Below are positions 4,472 to 24,493 of a stretch of 64,000 bases of DNA, piece after piece. The notes beneath the pieces were generated by a model. That model was not told the DNA's origin. It did not search any database and worked only from the letters and a program-made list of their open reading frames with translations. The DNA comes from Curvularia clavata (lineage: Eukaryota). The position numbers were made by a program, and so were the translations under genes. Within the stretch, counting starts at the first letter, position 1. Each line of letters opens with the position of its first letter. The stretch is from NCBI GenBank assembly GCA_023920165.1, contig CP089274.1, forward strand, positions 744,001 to 808,000, given 5' to 3'.

Positions 4472-7400
4472 TTAGGCTTTCCCTTTGACTCTACTATCGT
4501 CTTATCCTCCTTTCCTTCTGACTCTGCTTGCTGTGCAGACTCTGGTTTCGCCTCAGACTTTGACTCTGCAACCACCTTGCTGACCACCAGGCCGATAAGA
4601 TGCGAACCAACGTTGCCAGCACCGTCAATTGGCCCGAGCTTTGCATCAAAAAGCTTCGCCTCGCGCAGCAGACTGTAAGTTTTGTTAGCGATACATGGTC
4701 AAGATACTGGCGCTCAGATTCTTTTTGACTTACCGTGCTTTGCCGCCTGCTGTCTTGATCGGCGCTTCTTTGATCACTTTGCCAACTTGTTCCCTGTAAC
4801 TCTCGAAGACTGGGCCCATGATCATGCGGACCTGGATCTCGCTGAGGTATTTGTTGATAACTTTGTGCATGGTGACTGTGTCTTTGGTCAAGCTTTCCAT
4901 GCTGGGGCTGACATCTTTGTTTACTTCCGCCTCACTGTCCCAATCGACTTTCTTGAGACTGCGCATATGCACTGTAGCCCGTCCCGACAGAATGTCGGTT
5001 AACTTCTCATGAATTTGGTTCTGCTGATCGTGTAACAGGCGCTTGACATTGTCAAACTCACCGAGAGATGACTTGTTTGTGGCAGAAGCAACGCGTCGGC
5101 GAAAACATTCGCGGATGTAGGGAAGTATAGCGATTATGAAAGACAGTGTTTGAGAAGCAATTGCCAGGTGCTTGGTATTGATGTTCTTCAGACCGGCTGA
5201 ATGCATAGCACCAGCACCGAGAATTAGTTGGCAGAGGCGCGAGTTGAAGAGCTTGATATATTCGCAAAGTGAGGCAGCAACCTCAGAGGTCATGCTTGGC
5301 ATAGCGGAGACGAGTATTTCGAAGCGTTCAATGCCTCTTATAACGACAGTAGAGGACGAGGATATGGTATATTTTTCCTCATCCACAACTGCGGGCACAG
5401 TCGTTTTGCTCTTCTCCTTAGGCTTCTCTTCAGAAGTACCATTGGTCTTGGCCGAAGCACCGTTTGTGGTTGGTTCTTGGATTGTCTGAAGGATGTCGCC
5501 AGTCTCTGCCCAGCTAGGAGGGTCGCTTTCCATGCCTTTCAGTAACCGTGCCAAGACTTCAGTGTCCTCAGTGTCAAAGTCCTTTGGTTCCCAGCGATCT
5601 GAGTCCATAGCTTTTGCCAACTCTTGCTTTTCAAAATCTCCAAATTTCGATACAAAGTCGGTGATGTGGGTATTTACTACGGCCTTCAAAGCAGCACCAG
5701 ACCTTCCAGAAACAGCCTCGCACTCGTCCGCAAACAGCCTGCACATGTTGAAATACCGAAGAAATCTCTCGAGGGGGAGGTTTGCAGTGGCTTCTGATCG
5801 AACTTTCAAAAGTTTAGTGATCTGTGTCTGAGCAGCATCGACTGCTTGGCCAAGGAGGCTCGACATGTCCAAAGCCTGCATAATTTCCATTTGTAGGTCA
5901 GTGGAAGAAGCTGGCGGACCACCACTGCCTAGGTAATCATCAATGTTGTTTAGGTAGGAGCTCCTGGGAGATCGCAGGCCACCCGCAGAGACAGGAGGTG
6001 TGGTGACGCCACTCGTGACGTCGAGCAATACCTTGACCAAGGTGCTAAGTCGGCGCAGGGCTTCGCCAATGTCAGTGAAAATATTTGTGAAGAAGTCTTC
6101 CGCATCGCCAGGGTCCATTGCCCGCAGGTTGCGAGCAAGGATGGAATTCTTGTCCGCCTGACTTTGCCCCCGCCCGCCTCTTGTCGATACTGATGCCATA
6201 GACCCGGTATCATCGTCCGAGGAGCTTGGCAGGTGTTTCCGGATGATAACTTTCATCTCCTTTAAGATAGCTTCCCTGAAGGTTATGCTAGCCTGGTTCG
6301 TGAATTGCGCTCCACTCAGGCCGTACAGACTGGCTCGCAGCTCTGCTCGGAGCTTATTGTCGGTCGACATATAGGCGGGCAGCGCTGTTTTGAGCTTCTG
6401 GTTGCTGTTCCGTCCTTTCTGAGAGGCGGCGACCCATCTCTCCAGGGTCTCTTGATTTGGAACACGCTTTACGTGCTCGCGCAGGTCTGTAAGTAAGGTG
6501 TCTACAAAACGTGCCTCAAAACCTCTTCCGATTCGGAACTTGAGTTCAGTTATGCTTTCAAAGACGTCGTCCAAGGCTCTCAGAGGCCGTAGGTCAATTA
6601 ATTGAAGGGGCAGCCGCGTCTTCAGCCACGCTGTCCCTTGTGTGTCTGTGGTATCTAGCGCACCAGTTATAAGTCGTTCTACCATCTCGATTCGAGTCAT
6701 GGCAGTCTCCAAGTCACCATCAACAACGGCCTCATCGCAGTACGATAGCCCCATGATTACAGCGTGGAGCTGGTCGACTGAATCGGTTAATCTTCTTAAG
6801 TTCTCTCTCCGCCTCTTCATTTCGACGACCTTCAAGCCTCCTATTGCCATCTGCTCGTCCAACCGTTTAAGGTCTTCTCTCAAGGTTTTTATTTTCGCAA
6901 CAGAATCGGCAGCCTCTGTCTGCAGCTCACGTAGCGATCCAAGGGCGGCAAAAAAAGACGTTGATGCTGTTGAGATAGCTGATATTAGATGCACCTCTAC
7001 CGTGTCCATGTACCACGAAAGTTTCTCTTGTAGTATCGCATTCGTTGCGAGAGCCTTTCTTGTCGTCGGTTGTGGTGCATCCAAGCCGCCATGATCGTCG
7101 CTGCTTGTGCTTCGTACCGGCCTTACAACCTCGGATCGCTCGCTCACGACGTCAAAGGTTCGCGGGTTCTCAATATGAAAGTTCTCATCGAAGTAAATGT
7201 TGGGTATCGTAGAAAGTGGCGTAATTGCCGGTAATGTTCGCTTTGTTGCGCTCGTTCGACGCTTCGGTTTTGGGGTGGTATCTGGGGCAAAGGGTGCTGC
7301 TGCCAGGTTCGGTGTGTTAGCTGGCGAGGGCGCCAGATCATCAGGACCATCCTCCTTGCTCGACGCCCTCCGTGATGGCTGTGCAGATTCGACTGCTTCT

Positions 7401-7906
7401 ACCTTTGCGCGTTGAAAGGCATCATACAGATTTCCGACCTGAGTCAGATAAGGATTGAAGGCGGAGGGGTCGACGTGGGGCGTTTGTGCGAGTGTTACAG
7501 GAGGTATATCCCTTGTAGAAGGCGGACGGTGGCTAGAAGCAGCTGTGGCAGTTGTATGAGGGACCATGCCGGTCCGCATAATGGGAGGGGTGAGCAGCGT
7601 TGAGATAGCTGAGCGGAGGTTAGCTGTTGGCGCGCGGATGAGCATGCTTCAAGGTGTGTATTCACCATTATTGCTCTGCTCCCTCACCGCGCCCATGGTG
7701 CTCTTGAAGCTGTTGTCGAGGGAGCCGCCAACCGAATGAATTGAAGATGCGGTTGAGCCACGTCTCGGCTTGTAGCGCCCGCCCGTCGAGTTGGGCCTGC
7801 TTGTCCAGTCATGCTGCGAGGGCAATGGAAAGGAGCCTTGAGGAGGATTCGGCGATAGGAATTCGAAGCTTTCGGTCGACTTTCGTGAGGCGTCGGGGGA
7901 GGACAT
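4472..7906 (-). CDS. VPS54: GARP complex subunit Vps54; exons 7906-7666, 7608-4734, 4672-4472
   Basis: Conserved segments LQEKLSWYMDTVEVHL, STSFFAALGSL and CQLILGAGAMHSAGLKNINTKHLA. Canonical introns 7609-7665 and 4673-4733 join three frames. Confidence 0.93.
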
Positions 7907-8964
7907 GATGGCGGCGCAGGTCGGGGGTCAATCGGTAGCGGCATGGGGAAACAAAGGGGACGTTTATCGCATCTTGGCTCGAGGGTTGGATATTGCTGGT
8001 TCTCTGCTTATCCAACATACATGAGCAAGGAGACGGCACAATGGGAGCAATGCGGCATCGAGTCTTGCAGTGGTTCAATGTCGTCGGGAGTGGCTTCAAG
8101 TTCTCGCGCTCGGTGGTGACGGAGTGCATGGGCCCTGGGGCTGGAAATCGGACAGGGATAGGTACCGCAGCCAACCAGCCTCCACCCATCTCACTCTCAG
8201 ACTCTTTGTGCCACTGCTAATTTCAAGCAAGTTGATGACTGTATGATATCAAGGGTTATGACAAGCATAACTAAACACGACGTGATAAATAACTACAGAA
8301 TTTCAATACTAAGTGTAGCCTTGGCCTTCAATCAAGGTACGGTAATACCGACAGCTGTTTTTGTAAGTCTGAAGCGGAGAAAGTGCAGCCGCCTCCTCAG
8401 CTTGTGGCTAAGGAAGGCAGAATCAGTTTTGTCCGTCTTTGGATGAGGACTCTGCCTTTTTTCTCCATCGCTGTTCCATGCTCGAAACATGAGGTCTGTT
8501 ATAATCCATAATCGATGATACCTCGTTACTCGCCTGTATAAACAGTTTGATCACTCTCCTGTGCTTCAGATTCCACAATCGTTTCTCTACCTCTTGAGCT
8601 AAGGACCAGCTCATAAAGGCAACTTGTGTTTCAAAAGCGCTAAATACCGTCTATTGCGGAGGCAGTGCCGACGAGGCGTATGAAGCCGCAGCTGAAGTGG
8701 GAGGTGAGAGGCTCAGCCACGCTCAGGCCGTGGGGCCAGAATCGCCTTCTCCCGAATCTCCTCTCTTTTCACATCATTTACCTCCCCATCACCCTACTCT
8801 GCCGTATTGTTGTGGAAACTGCAAACCTACTGGATTGTTCAGACTCTGTTATATGTTTCGCATCGATGCGCAGTACCAGAGGCAGATTGAAGACCATCTC
8901 TGCTGTTTTGGCCTTGTTCGATACTGCGCTGCACTCTTGTGTCTAGTAGTTGTTGATAACAATC

Positions 8965-11900
8965 ATGTCGACAGCTTTGGCAAAGGTTGCACCGTTAAAG
9001 CCTGAGATCCGCCTCGGCCAGGTCGTCTCCGAATTCGAAGCTGACCTTTCAACCGAACAAAAGGTCGAATTTCAAGCACTCAGATTGCAATCAAGCAAGG
9101 CTGCGCCTGATCAAAACGATGTGATGCGGCTGACGGCCGAGATGGACAAACGTATATCCAGCAAGTTTGGCGGTCAATGCTTTGGGCCTCGCTTCACCAA
9201 CTTTGTTCAAGGAGTTCAGCGATTCGCCGCCCTTGGGGATATTCTCGTTGGTGGTTCACAGAACCTAGTCGCATGCGCGGTGTGGTCAGTAGTACGAATG
9301 TCGTTGTTGGTCAGCGTCTTGATCTTTGGTTGTTGTCGCTGCCATCCGCTGACGCCCGACAGTCTTTTGTAAGTCTATCAGCATACATAGACAAACTGTC
9401 TTCGATTTTCATGGTCATCGGGCGCACTACTCCACGCCATCAGGGGATGGCACTACTATACCCTCATTCCAAACCGTTACAGTCATCTTTTGCTGAATAT
9501 TTCATCATCGTGGTCAAGCTCTGTCATTACATATTCAAATTTGGCCAGAAGTCGTCTGTTCGGCAGTTCACCTCTTCCTTGAGCGATGCGCAGTTAAAAA
9601 CCTTCCAAACAGATCTAGATATATGGGCAAACTCGATCAAGGAAGAGATGCTTTTGGCAGAAGCTCAAGAGAACTCGAAATTCAGGACTTTGACTAGGGG
9701 AGCTTTTACCACTGGTTTCTATCAGCAGGGCTACGCAAGCAAAATTCGAGTGCTCGGCTTATGTTCTGAATACGACTATGAGACGGCCTGGAAACAAACA
9801 AGAAAAATCGGCAATTCATCTTTCTATAAGCAACTGGTAGAGTACCAGGAATGGAAGGGCTCCTCAAATTCTTGTACGCTAGTGTATACGGGCAAGTTAG
9901 GTTCGGGCAAGTCGGTGCTGATGGCCAACATTGTGGATGATCTTAATCTCTCTATTGAGGCAGATCAGTCTCTAGTAGCGTATTTCTTCTGCAAACATGA
10001 TATCCAGGAGAGTTTAGAAGCACGGACAATCCTTGGATCGCTAGTACGACAACTATTGTGTACTATCCCGAACTTTAACGTACTTGCTAAACGCTATAAG
10101 AATACCCCCTTTAAGGACGACATCGAAGGGCTGATAAGCTTGCTGATGGAAGCTTTCCCGAAAGACCGCAAAATATATATTGTTCTTGATGGTGTAGACG
10201 AATGCGGCTTCGAGCAGAAGGAAACATTAGCAAAAGCACTCAGGGAGATCCAAGAGAAGTTACAAGTCTTAGTGTGTGTTTCATTTCGAGAGAAGCCAGA
10301 CAATAGCATACAATCAGTCACTGAGCAGTTTCTCGCCACTCGGATCGTATCTTTACCGGAAAACAATCCAGACATCGAAGATTTCATTGAAACAGAACTC
10401 GAACGCTGTCTTCAACGAGGGCTTTTAACAATTGGAGATCCGACTCTAATACTAGAGATACAAGACACCCTTTTGAAAGGCTCGCAAGGAATGTTTCTCT
10501 GGGTAGCACTTCAGATCAAAACTCTGTGCAGTAAGAAGACCGATCACGCTATCCGGGAAGCATTAGCAGACCTGCCCAAGGACCTATCTGGAACGTTCGA
10601 AAGGATCTTACAGAAGTCAGGAACGGATCTATCACTTCAAACAAAAACACTGCAACTCGTTCTTGTTGCTTCCCGGCCTCTAACAACAGATGAGCTGCGA
10701 GAAGCTCTAAGTGTTGTTCCGGGGGACACTACCTGGGATCCTTCAAAGCTTTTGCACAATGTTTATTCAGCATTAGCTTGTTGCGGGTGTCTGCTTACTG
10801 TTGATGAGGAAGAGTTCACCATCCGAGTCGTCCATCACAGCGTTAAGCAGTATCTCTGCACTGGACATGGCACCACAGAACATGCAAAGTTTTCGCTCAA
10901 AGACGCGCGAAGAAAAATGGCAGACATTGTTGTTACTTACCTTTGCTACGGTGTTTTCGGAACTGAGCTATCGAGAGTCAACGCTCGTCCATTCATGGCA
11001 CAACCTCTCCTGTCTAAGATTGTACAATCCACCACGGGCTCGTTTAGCACTAGCTCCAGTTTTGCTATCAAATTACTTAAATTGAGGAAGCAATCTGATT
11101 TCGACTTGACTAAAGCAATTACCCAAATGAAAGGTTCATCACCCCATGAAAAAGAAACCTCGTTCAGCTTTTACCAATACGCAAATACGCATTGGTATGA
11201 ACACATTGTTTGCGTATCAGGACACAACGCTACCATCTTTCGGCTTGCTTCAAGGTTGATCAACGTGCGAGCTTCAACCTTCAACTTTGAACATAAAGAT
11301 CTATGGCCGGTTTGTGAAAGAGCCGTCGAGGGTAAAAATGAGAAGATCCTGGGGCTGTTGCTAGCAGCTGGAAACGTTGACATCAAACCCAAAGAAGAGA
11401 GACCAAATACAACGCTCTTGATTCATGCAGCTTCAAAAGGATACAAAGACCTGGTGGAAACGCTACTCAGCCATGACAAGACCATTGCCTACGCGATGCG
11501 TTATTCTGGGCGCTCAGCACTAATGTATGCAGTAACAGCAGGACACCACGACGTAGTTGAGGTGATTACCAAAATGAAAGAACCAGACGTCATGGCTCAT
11601 ATCCACGAGTTTATGTTGGAAGAGGCGCTAATAGTAGCAGCATATTTAGGCAATGCAAGCGCGTTCGAGATGATTCTGAAGACTGGAAAAGCTGACATCA
11701 ACGCGAGAACGAACGGCCCTTATACAGCGCTGATGTGTGCAGCAGAAGGGGGGCATAAAGACGTGGTCGAGATGATTCTGAAAACGGAAAAGCCCGAAAC
11801 TAGCGCAAAATTGGACAGCAATTACACAGCGCTGATTTACGCAGCAGCAAAGGGACATAAAGATATGGTCGAGATGATTCTGAAGACTGGAAAAGCTGAC

Positions 11901-12314
11901 ATCAACGCGACAAATGACACCGGGGATACAGCACTGATTTGTGCAGCAGAAGGGGGTTATAAAGACGTGGTCGAGATGATTCTAAAGACCGGAAAAGCTG
12001 ACATCAACGCGACAACAAACGGCTGGCATACAGCACTGATTCGTGCAGCAGAGAGGGGGCATAAAGACGTGATCGAGGTCCTTCTAAAAGACGAAGAGAT
12101 TGATATAACCGCAGCGGATAGGTTGGGGAGATCGGCGCTGATGGCAGCAGTGCATCAGGGACATAAGGATGTAGTAGAGATGCTCTTACTCACTGGAAAG
12201 TCTGGCATTGAAAGAAGTGCCGAATCTAGAAATGACGCAATGACAGCTGCGTTAATGGGAGGCGATAGGGACATCATCAAACTACTGACATCGTATGGCG
12301 CATCTGCCTATTAA
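8965..12314 (+). CDS. Fungal NLR-like STAND protein: helical N-terminal domain, NACHT NTPase, winged helix and ankyrin repeats; intron 9310-9362
   Basis: Walker A GKLGSGKS, Walker B IYIVLDGVDEC, GMFLWVALQ, SRPLTTDELREAL and VVHHSVKQYL. About 8 C-terminal ankyrin repeats of the form TALxxAAxxGHKDVVEMIL. The intron GTCAGC...CTGAC...CAG joins the two ORFs in frame. Confidence 0.92.
11667..12074 (+). repeat. Tandem 102-nt (34-aa) ankyrin-coding repeats with high internal nucleotide identity
   Basis: Units start at 11667, 11769, 11871 and 11973, with more diverged units at 12075 and 12177. The first 40 nt of units 1 and 3 are identical (gagatgattctgaagactggaaaagctgacatcaacgcga). Confidence 0.9.
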
Positions 12315-13103: not shown

Positions 13104-13926
13104 ATGGCTCGTCTACAGCGAACTCAACAACAGCCGGGGACGTATACCTACGAGCAGCTACCTGGCTTGATGGTCGCGGCAGATGAAGCGTTGTTTCCCC
13201 AACTGTTTGCCGCAGCAGACTTCGTGGCTCAGATGCTTCAAGCTAATGGAATTCCCTATGCCTTTATGGGCGGATTTGCGCTCAAGCTTCGAGGAAGCAC
13301 TCGTGATACTCATGACGTTGATGTTACCGTCGAATGTACGATGCTGCGCCTCATAGAGGTTCTTTCCGGGCAACCCAGGTACGTAAACCATTAATTCTCT
13401 ATGCTGTTCAATGAATAATAGAAATTCTAGGATCCTTCGTCCTGCTGGACCCACGCCCGGCGTTATGAGAGTTTTCGTTCTGGTTGGCGGGCAATTCGAT
13501 CCCGGTGTTCCAGAGCTCTGGGTGGTCGTCGACATGATCATTGGCGGTAAGTTTTACTTTTCCTTTCTTTGCGGGTACCTATACAGCTTAGACTGATATC
13601 CTTCTCATACAGGCTCCCTTGGCGCCCCCGACCACCCCCAAACCTCGTTGGAAGTTGTGGACTACAACACGGACATGGTACAAAAGCAGTTTCCTGTCAT
13701 CGACCTTCTAAGTTCAATGGCTAGCAAACTGGGTGCATTTTATTCGAGGCAAGGGCCAAACGACTATAGAGATCTCACGTTTCTCATCACGAAGTACCCT
13801 GAACAGGTCTTTGCAATCAGAAACCAACTCAACGCAACACAGCGCCAGTATTTCGTTGCCGCTTTTGCAAGGACGAATACTGATAACGCTATCATACGCG
13901 TTAAACATGCTCTCGGCATAGTTTAG
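13104..13926 (+). CDS. Pol-beta-superfamily nucleotidyltransferase, AbiEii/MenT-like; exons 13104-13378, 13431-13546, 13613-13926
   Basis: Two canonical introns join three ORFs in frame (about 234 aa). Motifs YAFMGGFAL, RDTHDVDV, a candidate third acid in VVVDMI, SKLGAFYSR and NDYRDL. Confidence 0.75.
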
Positions 13927-14556
13927 TGCTTGCGAACAAGGCCTATCTACAAGCGCCATTCATAAGCCGGAAGCTAACCGACGATGGCAAAAGATATCTT
14001 TCTGTAAAGATACAGAGTATCGTGCATGGTGTAACTGTCACTTTTTTAATCTTTTCATCTGCGGTGATAGGAAGGGGCTTTTTTTCGCATAGGTTTTGTG
14101 ACAAAGAAGCTTCCCTGAATTTTCCTATAGGCCTCTTCGATCAGGTAAGGCTGCCCAATAGAAATAGGTAATAGCTTAGAGAAATACAATTATAGAACAC
14201 GATAGAATCCTCGGTATTGTGTCGCCATGGTGGGAATTCCATGGATTGCTTGCAAATAGCCAACGGACTGGTGCCTTGTATTTGCCTTGTATGTGTACGA
14301 GCGCGGGGCAGTGTAGTGGCGTTTCATGGCGCTTCACTGGTATCTCGAGGAAAGGGACAGCACTCAGGATGACGTGCATCTCTCTGCCTGCATGCTAATA
14401 CTCCTAATCAAAACTGTGTCAAACTTAGCTGCTGTAAAGTATTATGTCAACACTTGAATTATGTCGGTCATCGACCGGCCGTTGTTTTAGTGTAGGCAGT
14501 GATAATGCTGAACTACTGTGACAATTCTACATCGCTAATATGTCTACCCCCGCACC

Positions 14557-15467
14557 TTACACGTGGTACCTTTCTCTGGACCGTGGATCAGGGGACCCTC
14601 GAGCACGAAACCGCGTGGCGAAATATTCCTCAGGTAATTCCGCCCCAAGTCGACGCGTTTTGGTATGAACAATAGTATTCCAGGACTCCCTAAGATTGAC
14701 GGGTTTGGCTCCAAGTTCCATGAGACACGAATATGGGGAAAACGGAATTGAAGCTCGTATCTTCTCATTTTTTCGCAGCGTCCATGCTAAATCATTTTCG
14801 GCGTCGAGTTTTAAATACTCCGAGCCCCATTGTTCAGTTAAGTCCATGCCATCTACAAGATCTGTGAGTGCGACCATGTCGTTGGTGTCGAGAAGACTTT
14901 GTGCGAACATCTCTAGAGTCGGATATGGGAGGCCCATTTGGCTACGCTCAATATTTTCGGGTATGCAGTCAATATGCGCGTCATCTGAGGGAATCAAGGT
15001 AAAGCACAGCGCCTTGCCTACGACTTTGAACCGTGGGAATGTGTGGAGTAGTGACCACAGCTCGGGGGGACGAGGCGGATAGGTTTCGTAAGAGTGGGCT
15101 GAATCCAGAAGTGCAGAGGCTTTTCCGAGCTTTTCTGTGGGCACGCATACCTCCCAGTCCTATTGATCCAGGTCAGTAGTGCAATGATAGAAACAATACA
15201 GACAACGCATCACTCTTTCAAGCTTACCCTACGTCCTCTCCCGGCGCCGTAGTAGATCAGAGCAGAGATACCCACCACACAACAAGTGATGCCAGCGCTT
15301 TCCAGTAACCGCGTCACTTCTAACATCTCCAAAGTACCGTGTCCAAAACTTGGCAACTCATCGTCATGGCTTCTATTCAGACAAGCGGGGTCATTGTAAT
15401 GCTGAATGGAGATTGGTTCAGAAAACGACATTTGGTGGTGCTGCACCTCCGCTGCGTTATGTTCCAT
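14557..15467 (-). CDS. Uncharacterised protein with a degenerate nucleotidyltransferase-like N-terminal motif; exons 15467-15228, 15159-14557
   Basis: A phase-0 intron at 15160-15227 (GTAAGC...CTGAC...TAG) joins two ORFs (about 280 aa), giving LESAGITCCVVGISALIYYGAGRGRR|DWEVCVP. Confidence 0.7.
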
Positions 15468-18493: not shown

Positions 18494-19451
18494 TCATCTT
18501 ACGAACGCACCGCCTCCGCTGGCCCCAAGTTGGTTACCCGTCATCCACCCACTCTCTGGCAAACAAGCGATCCCGACGATCCCAGCCACCTCTTCCAAGG
18601 TACCCGGCCTGCCGCCAATCTCACCTGCCAAGCGGAGCATATCTTCGGTGTCTACACCGGGGCGCTCCCTCGCCAGCGGGATCAACGCGTTGTACATCTT
18701 CAGTGCTTCCCTAGGGGCGTCAGGTAGTCCGTTGAGCAGACCAGTGTCCATGGGGCCTGGAGAGACACTGTTAACAGTGCAGCGCTCAGCAAGCTCACGC
18801 GCCCAGACGCGTGTCATGGCTTCAATAGCACCCTTGGTACCAGCATAGGAGGTCTGCTGGATGAGACCCCATGTCGTCGTTGCAGAGGAAATGTTGACGA
18901 TTCTGCCCGATCGATCATGAGGAAGGTAAGGGAACGCAGCCTTGATAAGCAGCGCAGGGGCTTTGCAGTTCAAGTTGAAGGTTTGATCCCACAGCTCTAC
19001 ATCTAGCTCTTGAATCGGCTGGGCATTGACGACTGCTGCATTGTTGATGATGATGTCGATCTGGAAGCTGGGGGTTGCAGAGGGGTTGGTGAAGTGCTGC
19101 TTTGCGGCCTCGACAAGGGCAGCTGGAGCCGAGGGGTCGAGCAAGTCCGCGCGCACAGGCAGCGCTCTCACGTTGTATGTCTTGGATAGATGAGCTGCCA
19201 GATCGGCGGCTGTCTTGTCCGAAGACGAAGTTGCGTAGTTGATCACCACGTTTGCGCCGCGCGAGGCAAGATGAGTTGCTACTGCTGCGCCGAAACCTAA
19301 AAGTGAAGGAAACTTATGTCAGTGCTTGGTCTCACGATAGACGTTTTCATAGAGCGAAAGGCATCGTCGACTTCGCGGGCAAGCAATACTCACTCCTTGA
19401 AGCTCCAGTGACAATGGCAAGTTTGCCGTCCAAAACCCTTGCTGGTGCCAT
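18494..19451 (-). CDS. Classical short-chain dehydrogenase/reductase (FabG-like); intron 19297-19393
   Basis: After splicing it reads LDGKLAIVTGASRSFG, followed by IIINNAA, GRIVNISS, catalytic YAGTK and VNSVSPGPMDT. Confidence 0.9.
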
Positions 19452-22594: not shown

Positions 22595-24493
22595 TCAGGT
22601 CCTGGGCGCGCGACCGTTATAGTCTACTCCAGGCGACGCGGTGTAGTTCGCGAAGCAATCATAGTTAAAGTCGATCTCGGCGCTGCGCTTCTTCAGTACC
22701 TCGACAACATGGTCGAACGAGCAAAGGCCGTCTGCGTTTTCAGGACATCCAGAGTAGGATTCGTGCAGAGGGACAACGGCGTCGTTTCTAAACGAACAGA
22801 TTAGCAATCCAATCTTTGATCATTTGGAGAACAGTGAGTTTCAAATAAAGGGGAGAAGATCAACATACACAATAAATCGAATCTGCTTGGTCGGCTGCAT
22901 GACAGGGCACGACAGAACCTGTGTAGTGAAATGGGTGGCAAACGGCACCAATTTGCTAGCCACAAAGGTATTACGGCCCTCGTTCCCCTTGGGACTCAAG
23001 GGGGGTCCTTTGAACAGCGCTGTGAGGTTGAACGCCATGAGCGTGTCGAGAACGACTACCTCGTGCGTTGCGTCCGCGTAGATTGATTGGTCCAGCGGAA
23101 AATACGTCGATGAATTGTCGAATGTTTCATTCAGCGCCGAGTTGGGCTGGGGATATGTGTGCGTGAAGCGAGCAAGGTATTCATCTAGGTAACCTTTTCC
23201 TTGGGCAGCTGACACGGGGGATCCGGGTCCATTGTTGTAGTAGAAAGAGAGGTCGAAGTAGTACTCGTAGTTGAGGAAATCTTGTTCGCTGAAAAGGTCG
23301 CAGAAAGGTGAGTATCCCAGTGCGTGCGTTTCGTACGAGCAGAGTTGCAACATGGAAATGATATCGGATGATGTCAAGTTTATGCCGTAGGCTTGGGATT
23401 GCAGACGCGCAAGGGTGGAGTTGAAGGCGTTGTTAGCGAATGCAGAGGCTACGGTGCTTCCGATACTGCCGCGACTCGCGACGTTGGAGTTGGTGCAGAT
23501 TTCATATGGAGCGCCAGAGTTGTTGACGCCCTTTGCTTCAACGATTATCTCGATGTTGACTTGGTCTAGGTATTCGGGTACACCAAAGAAACCAGCAGCA
23601 AAGTTCTCTGCAGTATGAACCATACGGTCCTGGCTTTCGGTTCTGAACACCGGGATCTTTCCAGTTTGGGTGAAGTTGTTGAGGAGATGGCCATAGAGCT
23701 GACGATACTCGACTCCCAGCATAAAGTTTTCGCTGCGGCCAGATGGGGTAAGAAGCTCAGCGCCGAGCTTGTACCTCCAGTTGCTCAGGAAGGCGAGTTC
23801 TCCAGAAAATGACAGGCCATTCTTGGTAGCGTTGGCAAGTTTTCCAGCGAATTTCGCTGGTGCTGCGTCGCTGGTAGGATACCTGGCTCCATGGCGGTAC
23901 AAAAGGTGCATTTGCGTAATTTCACATCCATCTGGGATCAGAGGACTGGCATTGGGCAAACCATAGTCGGAGCTGCGAACAGAGTACCAAGGACTGAGAT
24001 TGCCCCAGTACTTTGCAATGTCGAAGTCAGGGGATTGGGAGCCGCTTCCATGTGGTTGGGGTTTGATGAGCGGCCAGGAAAATGCGGGTTCGTCATTGTA
24101 CGGATAGGCTGGTGCGGTCTGGATTGCATTGGGCTCTACTCCAGTCGGTGTTGCTAGAAAACATGTGTCAATTTGAAGTGTTCCGGATGCTCCTTTTGCG
24201 GCTGGTGGTCCCAGCAAAGCCAATGGTGTGTACGAAAGATGTACTTACGTCCAGGGAACCCAACTACCGACTCTGGTGGAAAAAGCGAAGAATTGACCTC
24301 AGCTACAAAAGCTCGTCATTAGTATCGTGACCTTAAGCGCGTCGAGAAACTTACTCCCAGCAGGCGGATACACATCCATCGTACTCCTTCCAACATCCTC
24401 GGCAGCCGAAAACGTCGAGGTCGCCTGCGGTGCCGCGCCAACACTCCCAACCGCCACAGCAACAATGCCCGCTTTACTAATCTGCAACTTCAT
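22595..24493 (-). CDS. Secreted histidine acid phosphatase / phytase; 3 introns
   Basis: Signal-peptide-like MKLQISKAGIVAVAVGSVGA, catalytic RHGARYP, proton-donor motif YADATHE and C-terminal NDAVVPL...CP...GLC. Exons are joined by canonical introns. Confidence 0.9.

Follow-up and report, generated by a model that had tools for sequence, protein, structure and literature searches.

The stretch analysed here, 64,000 nucleotides (nt) of the Curvularia clavata genome (GenBank assembly GCA_023920165.1, contig CP089274.1, positions 744,001 to 808,000 of the forward strand; hereafter the window), contains a gene, gene A, that almost certainly encodes a nucleotidyltransferase (NTase) of the AbiEii/DUF1814 family with a MenT1-like fold. 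Gene A is a three-exon fungal gene and not an artefact. Sequence comparisons indicate that gene A is not alone: it pairs with a convergent neighbor, gene B, whose product appears to be related to it by fold, and the two make up what looks to be a two-gene module conserved across Pezizomycotina. As an explanation of the whole, we give an even chance to the reading that gene A is an NTase and gene B its controlling partner within this conserved module. The coordinates of all features are collected in Table 1.

The open reading frame (ORF) track of the window breaks gene A into three fragments, which the initial annotation had joined by two introns into a protein of about 234 amino acids (aa). 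Indeed, the three exons together give a spliced coding sequence of 705 nt that translates into 234 aa, with the stop codon ending at position 13926. Searching with exon 1 alone retrieved P0001, a 234-aa "hypothetical protein yc1106_00251 [Curvularia clavata]", which is identical letter for letter to the spliced product, indicating that an independent annotation has the same exon structure. When the family A profile was run on related metagenomic fungal loci, it matched in three pieces, with breaks at about profile positions 93 and 132 in most of them. The junction of intron 2 is read through without an intron, in a single open frame, in two relatives (L021 and L047); the sequence of L021 at this point is VDLILNGNKGAP, and the Curvularia counterpart is VDMIIGG/SLGAP, with the slash at the junction. 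One relative, L037, has a frame that stays open over junction 1, where it carries about 20 extra residues that may represent an in-frame intron, so that the support for junction 1 comes from the conservation of the break position and from the independent gene models. Exon 2 (38 residues) is among the best-conserved portions of the protein. On this comparative support, both introns appear to be as modeled. Low-depth contigs from one sequencing run contain both introns and thus behave as genomic DNA, with no bearing on splicing.

The spliced protein carries the four motifs named in the initial annotation (GGFAL, RDTHDVD, KLGAFYSR, and DYRDL), which are kept overall in 62-69 of the 70 relatives whose alignment we used for all gene A conservation counts. 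The near-invariant columns are G56, G57, G64, R67, T69, D71, D73, G131, K169, R176, D181, and D184, and they coincide with residues of the four DUF1814 motifs of Dy et al. (PMC3985639), who defined them as hG[G/S]x9-13(15)DhD with a motif II arginine, KLxAaxxR, and +DxxD. For motifs I and II, gene A has M55-G56-G57, 13 residues, and then D71-V72-D73, with R67 present (G56 and G57 are kept in 68 relatives each, R67 in 69, T69 in 64, D71 in 66, and D73 in 68). Motif III, K169-L-G-A-F-Y-S-R176, is an exact fit (K169 in 66, the leucine in 61, the alanine in 53, and R176 in 65), and motif IV reads D181-Y-R-D184 (D181 in 67 and D184 in 68). The "+" position of motif IV is N180 here, K or R in 23 of the 70 relatives, and Q in MenT1 by profile alignment. 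D126, which is D in 62 of the relatives, is the likely third carboxylate.

Membership in the AbiEii/DUF1814 family, as the initial annotation had proposed, was recovered in a hidden Markov model (HMM) search with the Pfam AbiEii model (PF08843), which P0001 passed narrowly (23.1 bits against a gathering cut-off of 22.5, E 8e-5, residues 50-206). The PADLOC AbiEii models matched gene A weakly (best E 2.5e-4), and an NCBIfam scan of gene A gave no match. Searched against the sequences of solved structures, the 70-sequence profile found the fungal protein Pb27 (5UVD, E 2.2e-10) and MenT1 (8AN4, E 3.4e-9), both over nearly the full length. In this profile alignment, T69, D71, K169, and D184 of gene A fall on T39, D41, K137, and D152 of MenT1, which are residues mutated in PMC11375011, and T69 is thereby the equivalent of the phospho-acceptor T39. 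The view of the enzyme as catalytically intact is therefore borne out as far as sequence allows, with all four motifs present and conserved; all catalytic and family-specific residues are in place, and gene A very likely encodes an active NTase.

Structure prediction gave a consistent picture. An earlier model of the gene A protein, built from five sequences only, was unusable (predicted local distance difference test, pLDDT, 46.8) and was replaced by an AlphaFold2 model from the 70-sequence alignment, with a pLDDT of 96.7 and a predicted template modeling score (pTM) of 0.91. The predicted structure consists of a pol-beta NTase alpha/beta domain and a helical C-terminal domain, as in the MenT and Pb27 structures, in line with the fold that had been expected from the motifs. 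The top Foldseek matches of this model were 5UVD, MenT1, MenT3/TglT, and JHP933. By structural superposition, it fits best on MenT1 (Z 16.1, root-mean-square deviation (rmsd) 2.8 Å, 173 of 195 residues, 23% identity), followed by Pb27 (5UVD; Z 14.3, rmsd 3.3 Å, 194 residues aligned), MenT3 (Z about 12), JHP933 (Z 11.5-11.9), and AbiEi (6y8q; Z 9.4).

A profile made from five close relatives retrieved 441 cluster representatives at E<=1e-3 from 1.84 billion proteins, many of them exon-sized fragments. A word-indexed search yielded 42 gene A relatives, 37 of them named; 36 of these 37 are ascomycetes (Dothideomycetes, Eurotiomycetes, Leotiomycetes, Sordariomycetes, and allies), and none is a bacterial protein. 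One named relative is labeled Quercus suber and is probably a contaminant. The closest named relative, from other families of Pleosporales, is 69-70% identical, the 90% cluster of P0001 has a single member, and annotated-protein searches, with unannotated genomes outside their scope, gave no orthologue in Curvularia, Bipolaris, or Alternaria. This suggests a patchy distribution of gene A through loss or transfer. Some annotated family A proteins are longer: P0018 (Aspergillus avenaceus, 586 aa) has retrotransposon gag and jacalin-like matches before the NTase, P0142 (Decorospora gaudefroyi, 749 aa) continues beyond it for about 530 unassigned residues, and P0035 (Chaetomium strumarium) is 400 aa in length. 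Either merged gene models or genuine fusions may account for such lengths.

Gene B encodes 280 aa in two exons at 14557-15467 on the minus strand. Most related loci share a frame break at profile position 74/75, and three (L021, L026, and L033) are intronless there. We found 175 homologues at E<=1e-3 and used an alignment of 34 for the family profile. With the profile of these 34 sequences set against that of the 70 gene A relatives, hhalign returned a probability of 86.8% (E 4.2e-6, 149 columns) with both motif regions in register; the reversed A profile scored 0.3%, and 20 column shuffles scored at most 0.5%. The end of gene B exon 1, VVGISALIYYGAGRGRR, is set on MGGFALKLRGSTRDTHDVD of gene A and is a degenerate counterpart of motifs I and II. 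Over the splice junction, VVGISALIYYGAGRGRR/DWEVCVP, gene B is in residue-for-residue register with MGGFALKLRGSTRDTHDVDVTV of gene A. Moreover, the A and B HMMs cross-match the same N-terminal core in 9 of 304 proteins; none of the 304 is an A-B fusion with both families as separate domains, as the nine double matches fall on that one core. Together, these comparisons indicate that gene B is a distant paralogue of gene A or, at the minimum, shares its fold.

Across the 34 gene B members, Pfam at E<=1 gave no consistent family and no AbiEi or other antitoxin family; DUF2007 was matched in five of them (best E 3.9e-5). In the ESM Atlas, gene B led to ascomycete clusters only, among them one with the automatic name "Nucleotidyltransferase family protein", apart from a lead at 0.88-0.89 to a bacterial cluster that has Aminoglyc_resit in 17% of its members. 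One exon-2-sized gene B homologue, P0242 (198 aa), is deposited under a "Deltaproteobacteria bacterium" metagenome-assembled genome and occurs on 73 contigs; the likely explanation is that fungal DNA was assigned to a bacterial genome during binning.

The active site of gene B is partly kept and partly lost among the 34 sequences. The first glycine (A G56) is G in 31, and the second (A G57) is G in 1 and otherwise I, V, or T. The motif II arginine (A R67) is kept in 32, the position of the phospho-acceptor threonine (A T69) is R in 23, the first carboxylate (A D71) is D in 25, and the second (A D73) is E in 28 and D in none. In motif III, the lysine (A K169) is S in 31 and the arginine (A R176) is not conserved; the two aspartates of DxxD (A D181 and D184) are D in 33 and 34. 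In AbiEii, a D-to-E change at either motif II aspartate abolishes toxicity (PMC3985639), and this effect, taken with the E at the second carboxylate of gene B, leads us to lean toward a gene B product that is non-catalytic and pseudo-enzyme-like. With a mean column identity of 38% and 44 columns at >=90%, the gene B family is under clear purifying selection.

The case for a module comes from the linkage of the two families. In seven species with named genomes, A and B homologues form eight pairs with neighboring locus tags: Ophidiomyces ophidiicola (A LOZ53_003154, B LOZ53_003155), Emydomyces testavorans, with a first (A PRK78_000595, B PRK78_000594) and a second pair (A PRK78_006445, B PRK78_006444), Cadophora gregata (A ONS95_012691, B ONS95_012690), Bogoriella megaspora (A M1820_002788, B M1820_002789), Cirrosporium novae-zelandiae (A M1834_007065, B M1834_007064), [Emmonsia] crescens (A EMCG_00805, B EMCG_00804), and Chaetothyriales sp. 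CBS 134920 (A DV735_g3529, B DV735_g3528). The A and B tags of Blastomyces silverae are two apart (EMPG_10127 and EMPG_10125), and A and B lie on contigs of equal size in five more species (Lophium, Cadophora sp. DSE1049, Stipitochalara, Aspergillus avenaceus, and Nemania). We also scanned 60 B-encoding metagenomic loci with both HMMs and collapsed them at 97% nucleotide identity into 43 clusters. Within the DNA available, gene A was present in 20 of these 43 non-redundant loci, and where gene B was full length with at least 3 kb on either side, gene A was found in 7 of 10.

The spacing between A and B in the metagenomic loci is about 220-2300 nt, and the arrangement is divergent in nine, tandem with B before A in five, convergent as in the window in four, and tandem with A before B in two. 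Close Pleosporales-like relatives of the window's pair are tandem, not convergent. The genes that flank the pair vary by locus (among them monooxygenase, ArgJ, GH18, enoyl-CoA hydratase, topoisomerase, GNAT, SOD, HIT, and fungal transcription factor), such that A and B stay adjacent across lineages and independently of their surroundings, as expected of a generic two-gene module. By rough estimate, gene A would lie within 5 kb of a given gene about 1 time in 1000, assuming 1-3 A copies in a genome of about 35 Mb. Because the adjacency has come through inversions and changes of context in four classes, it points to selection for linkage. The initial annotation had taken gene A for a stand-alone member of its family, and this part of it gives way to a conserved neighbor that seems to be a degenerate NTase-fold paralogue. 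We consider it quite probable that A and B are also functionally coupled.

Other genes were observed near gene B in some loci. A Fig1/SUR7-like membrane-protein gene lies at most about 3 kb from gene B in five non-redundant metagenomic loci, four of which have gene A, and it sits between B and A in L002 and L009; a tblastn search of the 64-kb window gave no homologue of it. It could reflect lineage synteny or be a third component. T5orf172/MUG113-domain genes were seen near gene B in three loci and HET-domain genes in two, with gene A also present in L013 and L039; both families are characteristic of the variable, conflict-associated parts of fungal genomes.

Taken alone, gene A is a further member of the fungal DUF1814 genes that have already been described. 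DUF1814 proteins in fungal genomes were noted by Dy et al. in 2014 (PMC3985639), and, in the available text of that paper and of Cai et al. (PMC7450476), which repeats the point, fungal homologues are said to lack a linked putative antitoxin. PF08843 genes are expanded in Colletotrichum siamense alongside NACHT, HET, and Ank families (PMC13468701), occur in all skin-associated fungi studied (PMC13448219), and are found in Sporothrix (PMC11822852); the accessible text of these three papers describes no conserved partner, no structure-based assignment to the MenT1 branch, and no function. Secretion is predicted for some of the Colletotrichum members, whereas the N-terminus of gene A, judged by eye, is hydrophilic and has no signal-peptide-like stretch. 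The A-B pairing was not found in the literature searched, with the supplements of the cited papers and the original Pb27 paper outside its scope, and it runs against the statement on fungal homologues in the available text of PMC3985639 and PMC7450476.

The closest solved fungal structure, 5UVD, is Pb27, a nucleotidyltransferase-like antigen of Paracoccidioides brasiliensis (PMC7913102, PMC7319586, bioRxiv 10.64898/2026.01.19.700257). Like gene A, Pb27 is a fungal DUF1814-superfamily protein with the same two-domain fold, and GG, R-x-T-x-D-x-D, K...R, and DxxD are all seen in the HMM alignment. It is only 18-22% identical to gene A, however, which places it in a different fungal subfamily, and Paracoccidioides has its own members of the gene A family (P0017 and P0183; E 3.5e-59), separate from Pb27. 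Gene A is as compact as MenT1 of Mycobacterium tuberculosis (Rv0078A; 8AN4, 8AN5, and 8RR5) and lacks the additional helices found in MenT3 and MenT4. It differs from MenT1 in being eukaryotic and intron-bearing, in an N-terminal extension of about 30 residues, and in its neighbor, a 280-aa NTase-fold paralogue; moreover, the fungal pair is no operon, and its orientation varies.

The arrangement also resembles AbiE (AbiEi-AbiEii) and MenAT3, two-gene modules with a DUF1814 NTase beside a partner. MenA1 is a small protein, and one MenA1 binds two MenT1 protomers. MenA1, MenA3, and AbiEi neutralize their toxins by inducing auto-phosphorylation of a motif II threonine or serine (T65, T39, S78; bioRxiv 10.64898/2026.01.19.700257, PMC11375011), and the counterpart of this phospho-acceptor in gene A is T69, conserved as counted above. 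The C-terminal domain of AbiEi is NTase-like by fold (PMC7319586), which, together with its Z of 9.4 against gene A, offers a precedent for an NTase-fold partner. Unlike AbiEi, gene B has no detectable winged-helix DNA-binding domain, AbiEi Pfam match, or COG5340/COG4861 signature. Nor does the gene A locus have an adjacent, co-transcribed antitoxin of the COG5340, COG4861, or MenA1 type: A and B are not co-transcribed, being convergent here and variably oriented elsewhere, and the conserved partner is a different one.

We propose that gene A would act as a cytosolic NTase of the short, MenT1-like branch which, by analogy with MenT1, MenT3, and AbiEii, would use nucleoside triphosphates and Mg2+ to add nucleotides to the 3' end of an RNA. 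The leading candidate for this substrate is the tRNA acceptor end, since all DUF1814 toxins characterized so far have this transfer activity (PMC7450476, PMC11375011, and the 2026 AbiEii preprint), and its modification would block translation; we put tRNA as the target somewhat short of an even chance. Gene B would be a non-catalytic partner that binds and controls gene A. It might exert an antitoxin-like restraint, possibly through auto-phosphorylation of T69 of the kind that MenA1, MenA3, and AbiEi induce; alternatively, it might be a substrate-binding subunit, whose basic C-terminal tail, a gain relative to gene A, could bind RNA in a heterodimeric enzyme. That gene B inhibits gene A is a tentative suggestion, held a little less firmly than the tRNA assignment. 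More doubtful again is the complete picture of a eukaryotic toxin-antitoxin-like module, in which a MenT1-type tRNA NTase would be checked by a pseudo-enzyme paralogue, possibly via T69 auto-phosphorylation; we regard it as possible and on the unlikely side. The patchy spread, the two copies in one genome, and the shifting context would fit a cell-autonomous system of defense or incompatibility (against mycoviruses or non-self) or a selfish addiction element.

Several observations weigh against the reading of gene A as a MenT1-like enzyme that is controlled by gene B. The AbiEii Pfam score is marginal, and among four close relatives scanned with Pfam, one passes (24.2 bits), two match with scores short of the cut-off (19.5 and 18.2 bits), and for P0006 the AbiEii model gave no match at E<=1. 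The small-molecule NTases ANT(2'')-Ia (Z 11.8-12.0) and LnuA (Z 11.6) superpose on the gene A model with scores near that of MenT3, so RNA is not the sole possible substrate. Gene B gave no match to PDB sequences at E<=10 and is without detectable AbiEi Pfam likeness. With its first glycine, motif II arginine, D-W-E pair, and DxxD kept, it could instead be a divergent active enzyme. Lastly, A and B homologues were found on different contigs in Arachnomyces sp. PD_36 and Chaetomium strumarium, and 3 of the 10 well-flanked full-length B loci lack gene A.

The ANT(2'')-Ia and LnuA scores bear on what we see as the strongest rival explanation, namely that gene A, joined by gene B as its structural subunit, transfers nucleotides to a small molecule or other non-tRNA substrate in a housekeeping or detoxifying role that involves no toxin logic. 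Several family members have weak Pfam Aminoglyc_resit matches (e.g., P0124, E 3.7e-5), and Dy et al. (PMC3985639) named RNA, DNA, protein, nucleotides, and small molecules as possible targets of DUF1814 proteins. We nevertheless judge this explanation unlikely: the DUF1814-specific motifs III and IV are strictly kept, MenT1 is the best structural match at 4 Z-units above the antibiotic NTases, and the flanks scanned show no recurring genes for resistance or biosynthesis. Less likely still is that gene A acts on its own, with gene B a decaying or independent duplicate that lies nearby by descent and has no coupling to it. Since A and B are paralogous, tandem duplication would explain their initial adjacency, and 23 of the 43 B loci have no gene A in the available DNA, many of the contigs being short. 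Decay fits poorly with the clear purifying selection on gene B, however, and mere descent does not readily account for an adjacency that persists over four Pezizomycotina classes, survives inversion into all four orientations amid unrelated flanks, and occurs twice over in Emydomyces testavorans.

The initial annotation had also raised a signaling-nucleotide synthase, meaning here a CD-NTase-like enzyme that makes a second messenger. The pol-beta fold is common to both groups and Foldseek does list CdnE for the gene A model (E 7.7e-4 to 1.5e-3), but these matches are weak, with a TM of about 0.3 and an rmsd of 15-16 Å. Because gene A, at 234 aa, has the DUF1814 C-terminal motifs rather than a cGAS/CD-NTase C-lobe, and because no effector-like gene recurs beside it in the flanks scanned, we find this reading very improbable. 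The least probable of all, to the point of being negligible, is that gene A stems from bacterial contamination or recent transfer, or that it is a pseudogene. AbiEii/DUF1814 is best known from bacteria; against this, gene A has an open frame with intact motifs, two spliceosomal introns at positions common to most related fungal loci, almost exclusively ascomycete named relatives, and a place among fungal genes (Vps54, the NACHT-ankyrin gene described below, and a short-chain dehydrogenase). When A and B were each searched by tblastn in 72,556 plasmids, nothing was found at E<=0.01, and a scan of prokaryotes (one genome per species, 185,579 species) for patterns of gene A close relatives, which detects close relatives only, gave 35 pattern matches, none of them confirmed. 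The long residence in fungi that had been argued from the introns is thus upheld, both by the shared intron positions and by the relatives in four Pezizomycotina classes.

Table 1. Features of the window and of related metagenomic loci (positions in the window unless a locus is named; position 1 is the first letter of the window)
Feature	Positions	Strand	Remarks
Vps54 gene	4730-7648	-	
NLR-type gene	8966-12314	+	ATG near 8966
NLR N-terminal ORF	8950-9372		140 aa
Gene A exon 1	13104..13378	+	residues 1-91 plus 2 nt; ATG at 13104
Gene A motif I, GGFAL	13269-13283	+	exon 1, residue 56
Gene A motif II, RDTHDVD	13302-13322	+	exon 1, residue 67; includes T69
Gene A intron 1	13379..13430	+	52 nt, GTACGT...TAG
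Gene A exon 2	13431..13546	+	residues ~92-130; NTase-core beta-strands, includes D126
Gene A intron 2	13547..13612	+	66 nt, GTAAGT...CAG, CTGAT branch-like site
Gene A exon 3	13613..13926	+	residues 131-234 and stop; helical C-terminal domain
Gene A motif III, KLGAFYSR	13726-13749	+	exon 3, residue 169
Gene A motif IV, DYRDL	13762-13776	+	exon 3, residue 181
A-B spacer	13927..14556		630 nt; separates the stop codons of the two convergent genes
Gene B exon 2	14557..15159	-	200 aa and TAA stop; starts DWEVCVP; conserved DL[IV]DGM (DxxD-like); conserved basic tail at the end, ATRFR..G..DPR
Gene B intron	15160..15227	-	68 nt, GTAAGC...ATAG, ACTGAC branch-like site
Gene B exon 1	15228..15467	-	80 aa, ATG at 15467-15465; ends ...VVGISALIYYGAGRGRR
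Short-chain dehydrogenase gene	18494-19318	-	
Histidine acid phosphatase gene	22841-24244	-	
Fig1/SUR7-like genes	L001/L002 3298-4109; L009 1633-2391; L016 639-1193; L028 790-1455; L037 8470-9072		metagenomic loci
T5orf172/MUG113 and HET-domain genes	L013 2-1105; L039 2178-3503, 6352-7683; L048 1951-3264, 4564-5907		metagenomic loci

Upstream of gene A on the same strand, the window holds a NOD-like receptor (NLR)-type gene with NPHP3_N/NACHT, GPIID winged-helix, and ankyrin-repeat regions, whose N-terminal 140-aa ORF has no Pfam match. We considered this gene as a partner of gene A and rejected it, as NACHT was found in 0 of 55 flanking ORFs scanned from related loci; it is probably a chance neighbor.

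DUF1814 toxins such as AbiEii and MenT are among the commonest bacterial toxins of defense and growth control, and the family has so far been represented in eukaryotes by unexplained annotations and one antigen structure. One fungal clade now has a conserved partner for such an enzyme, and this partner appears to be a degenerate version of the fold of the enzyme itself. If the pair turned out to form an ordinary heterodimeric enzyme, the gene B family, whose 175 homologues belong to no Pfam family, would still have gained an assigned fold and partner. If gene A is the enzyme and gene B its restraint, the pair would be a clear case of toxin-antitoxin logic maintained in a eukaryote, would reveal a new route to an antitoxin by duplication of the toxin, and would provide a simple two-gene system for regulated tRNA-end modification in fungal stress, immunity, and incompatibility.

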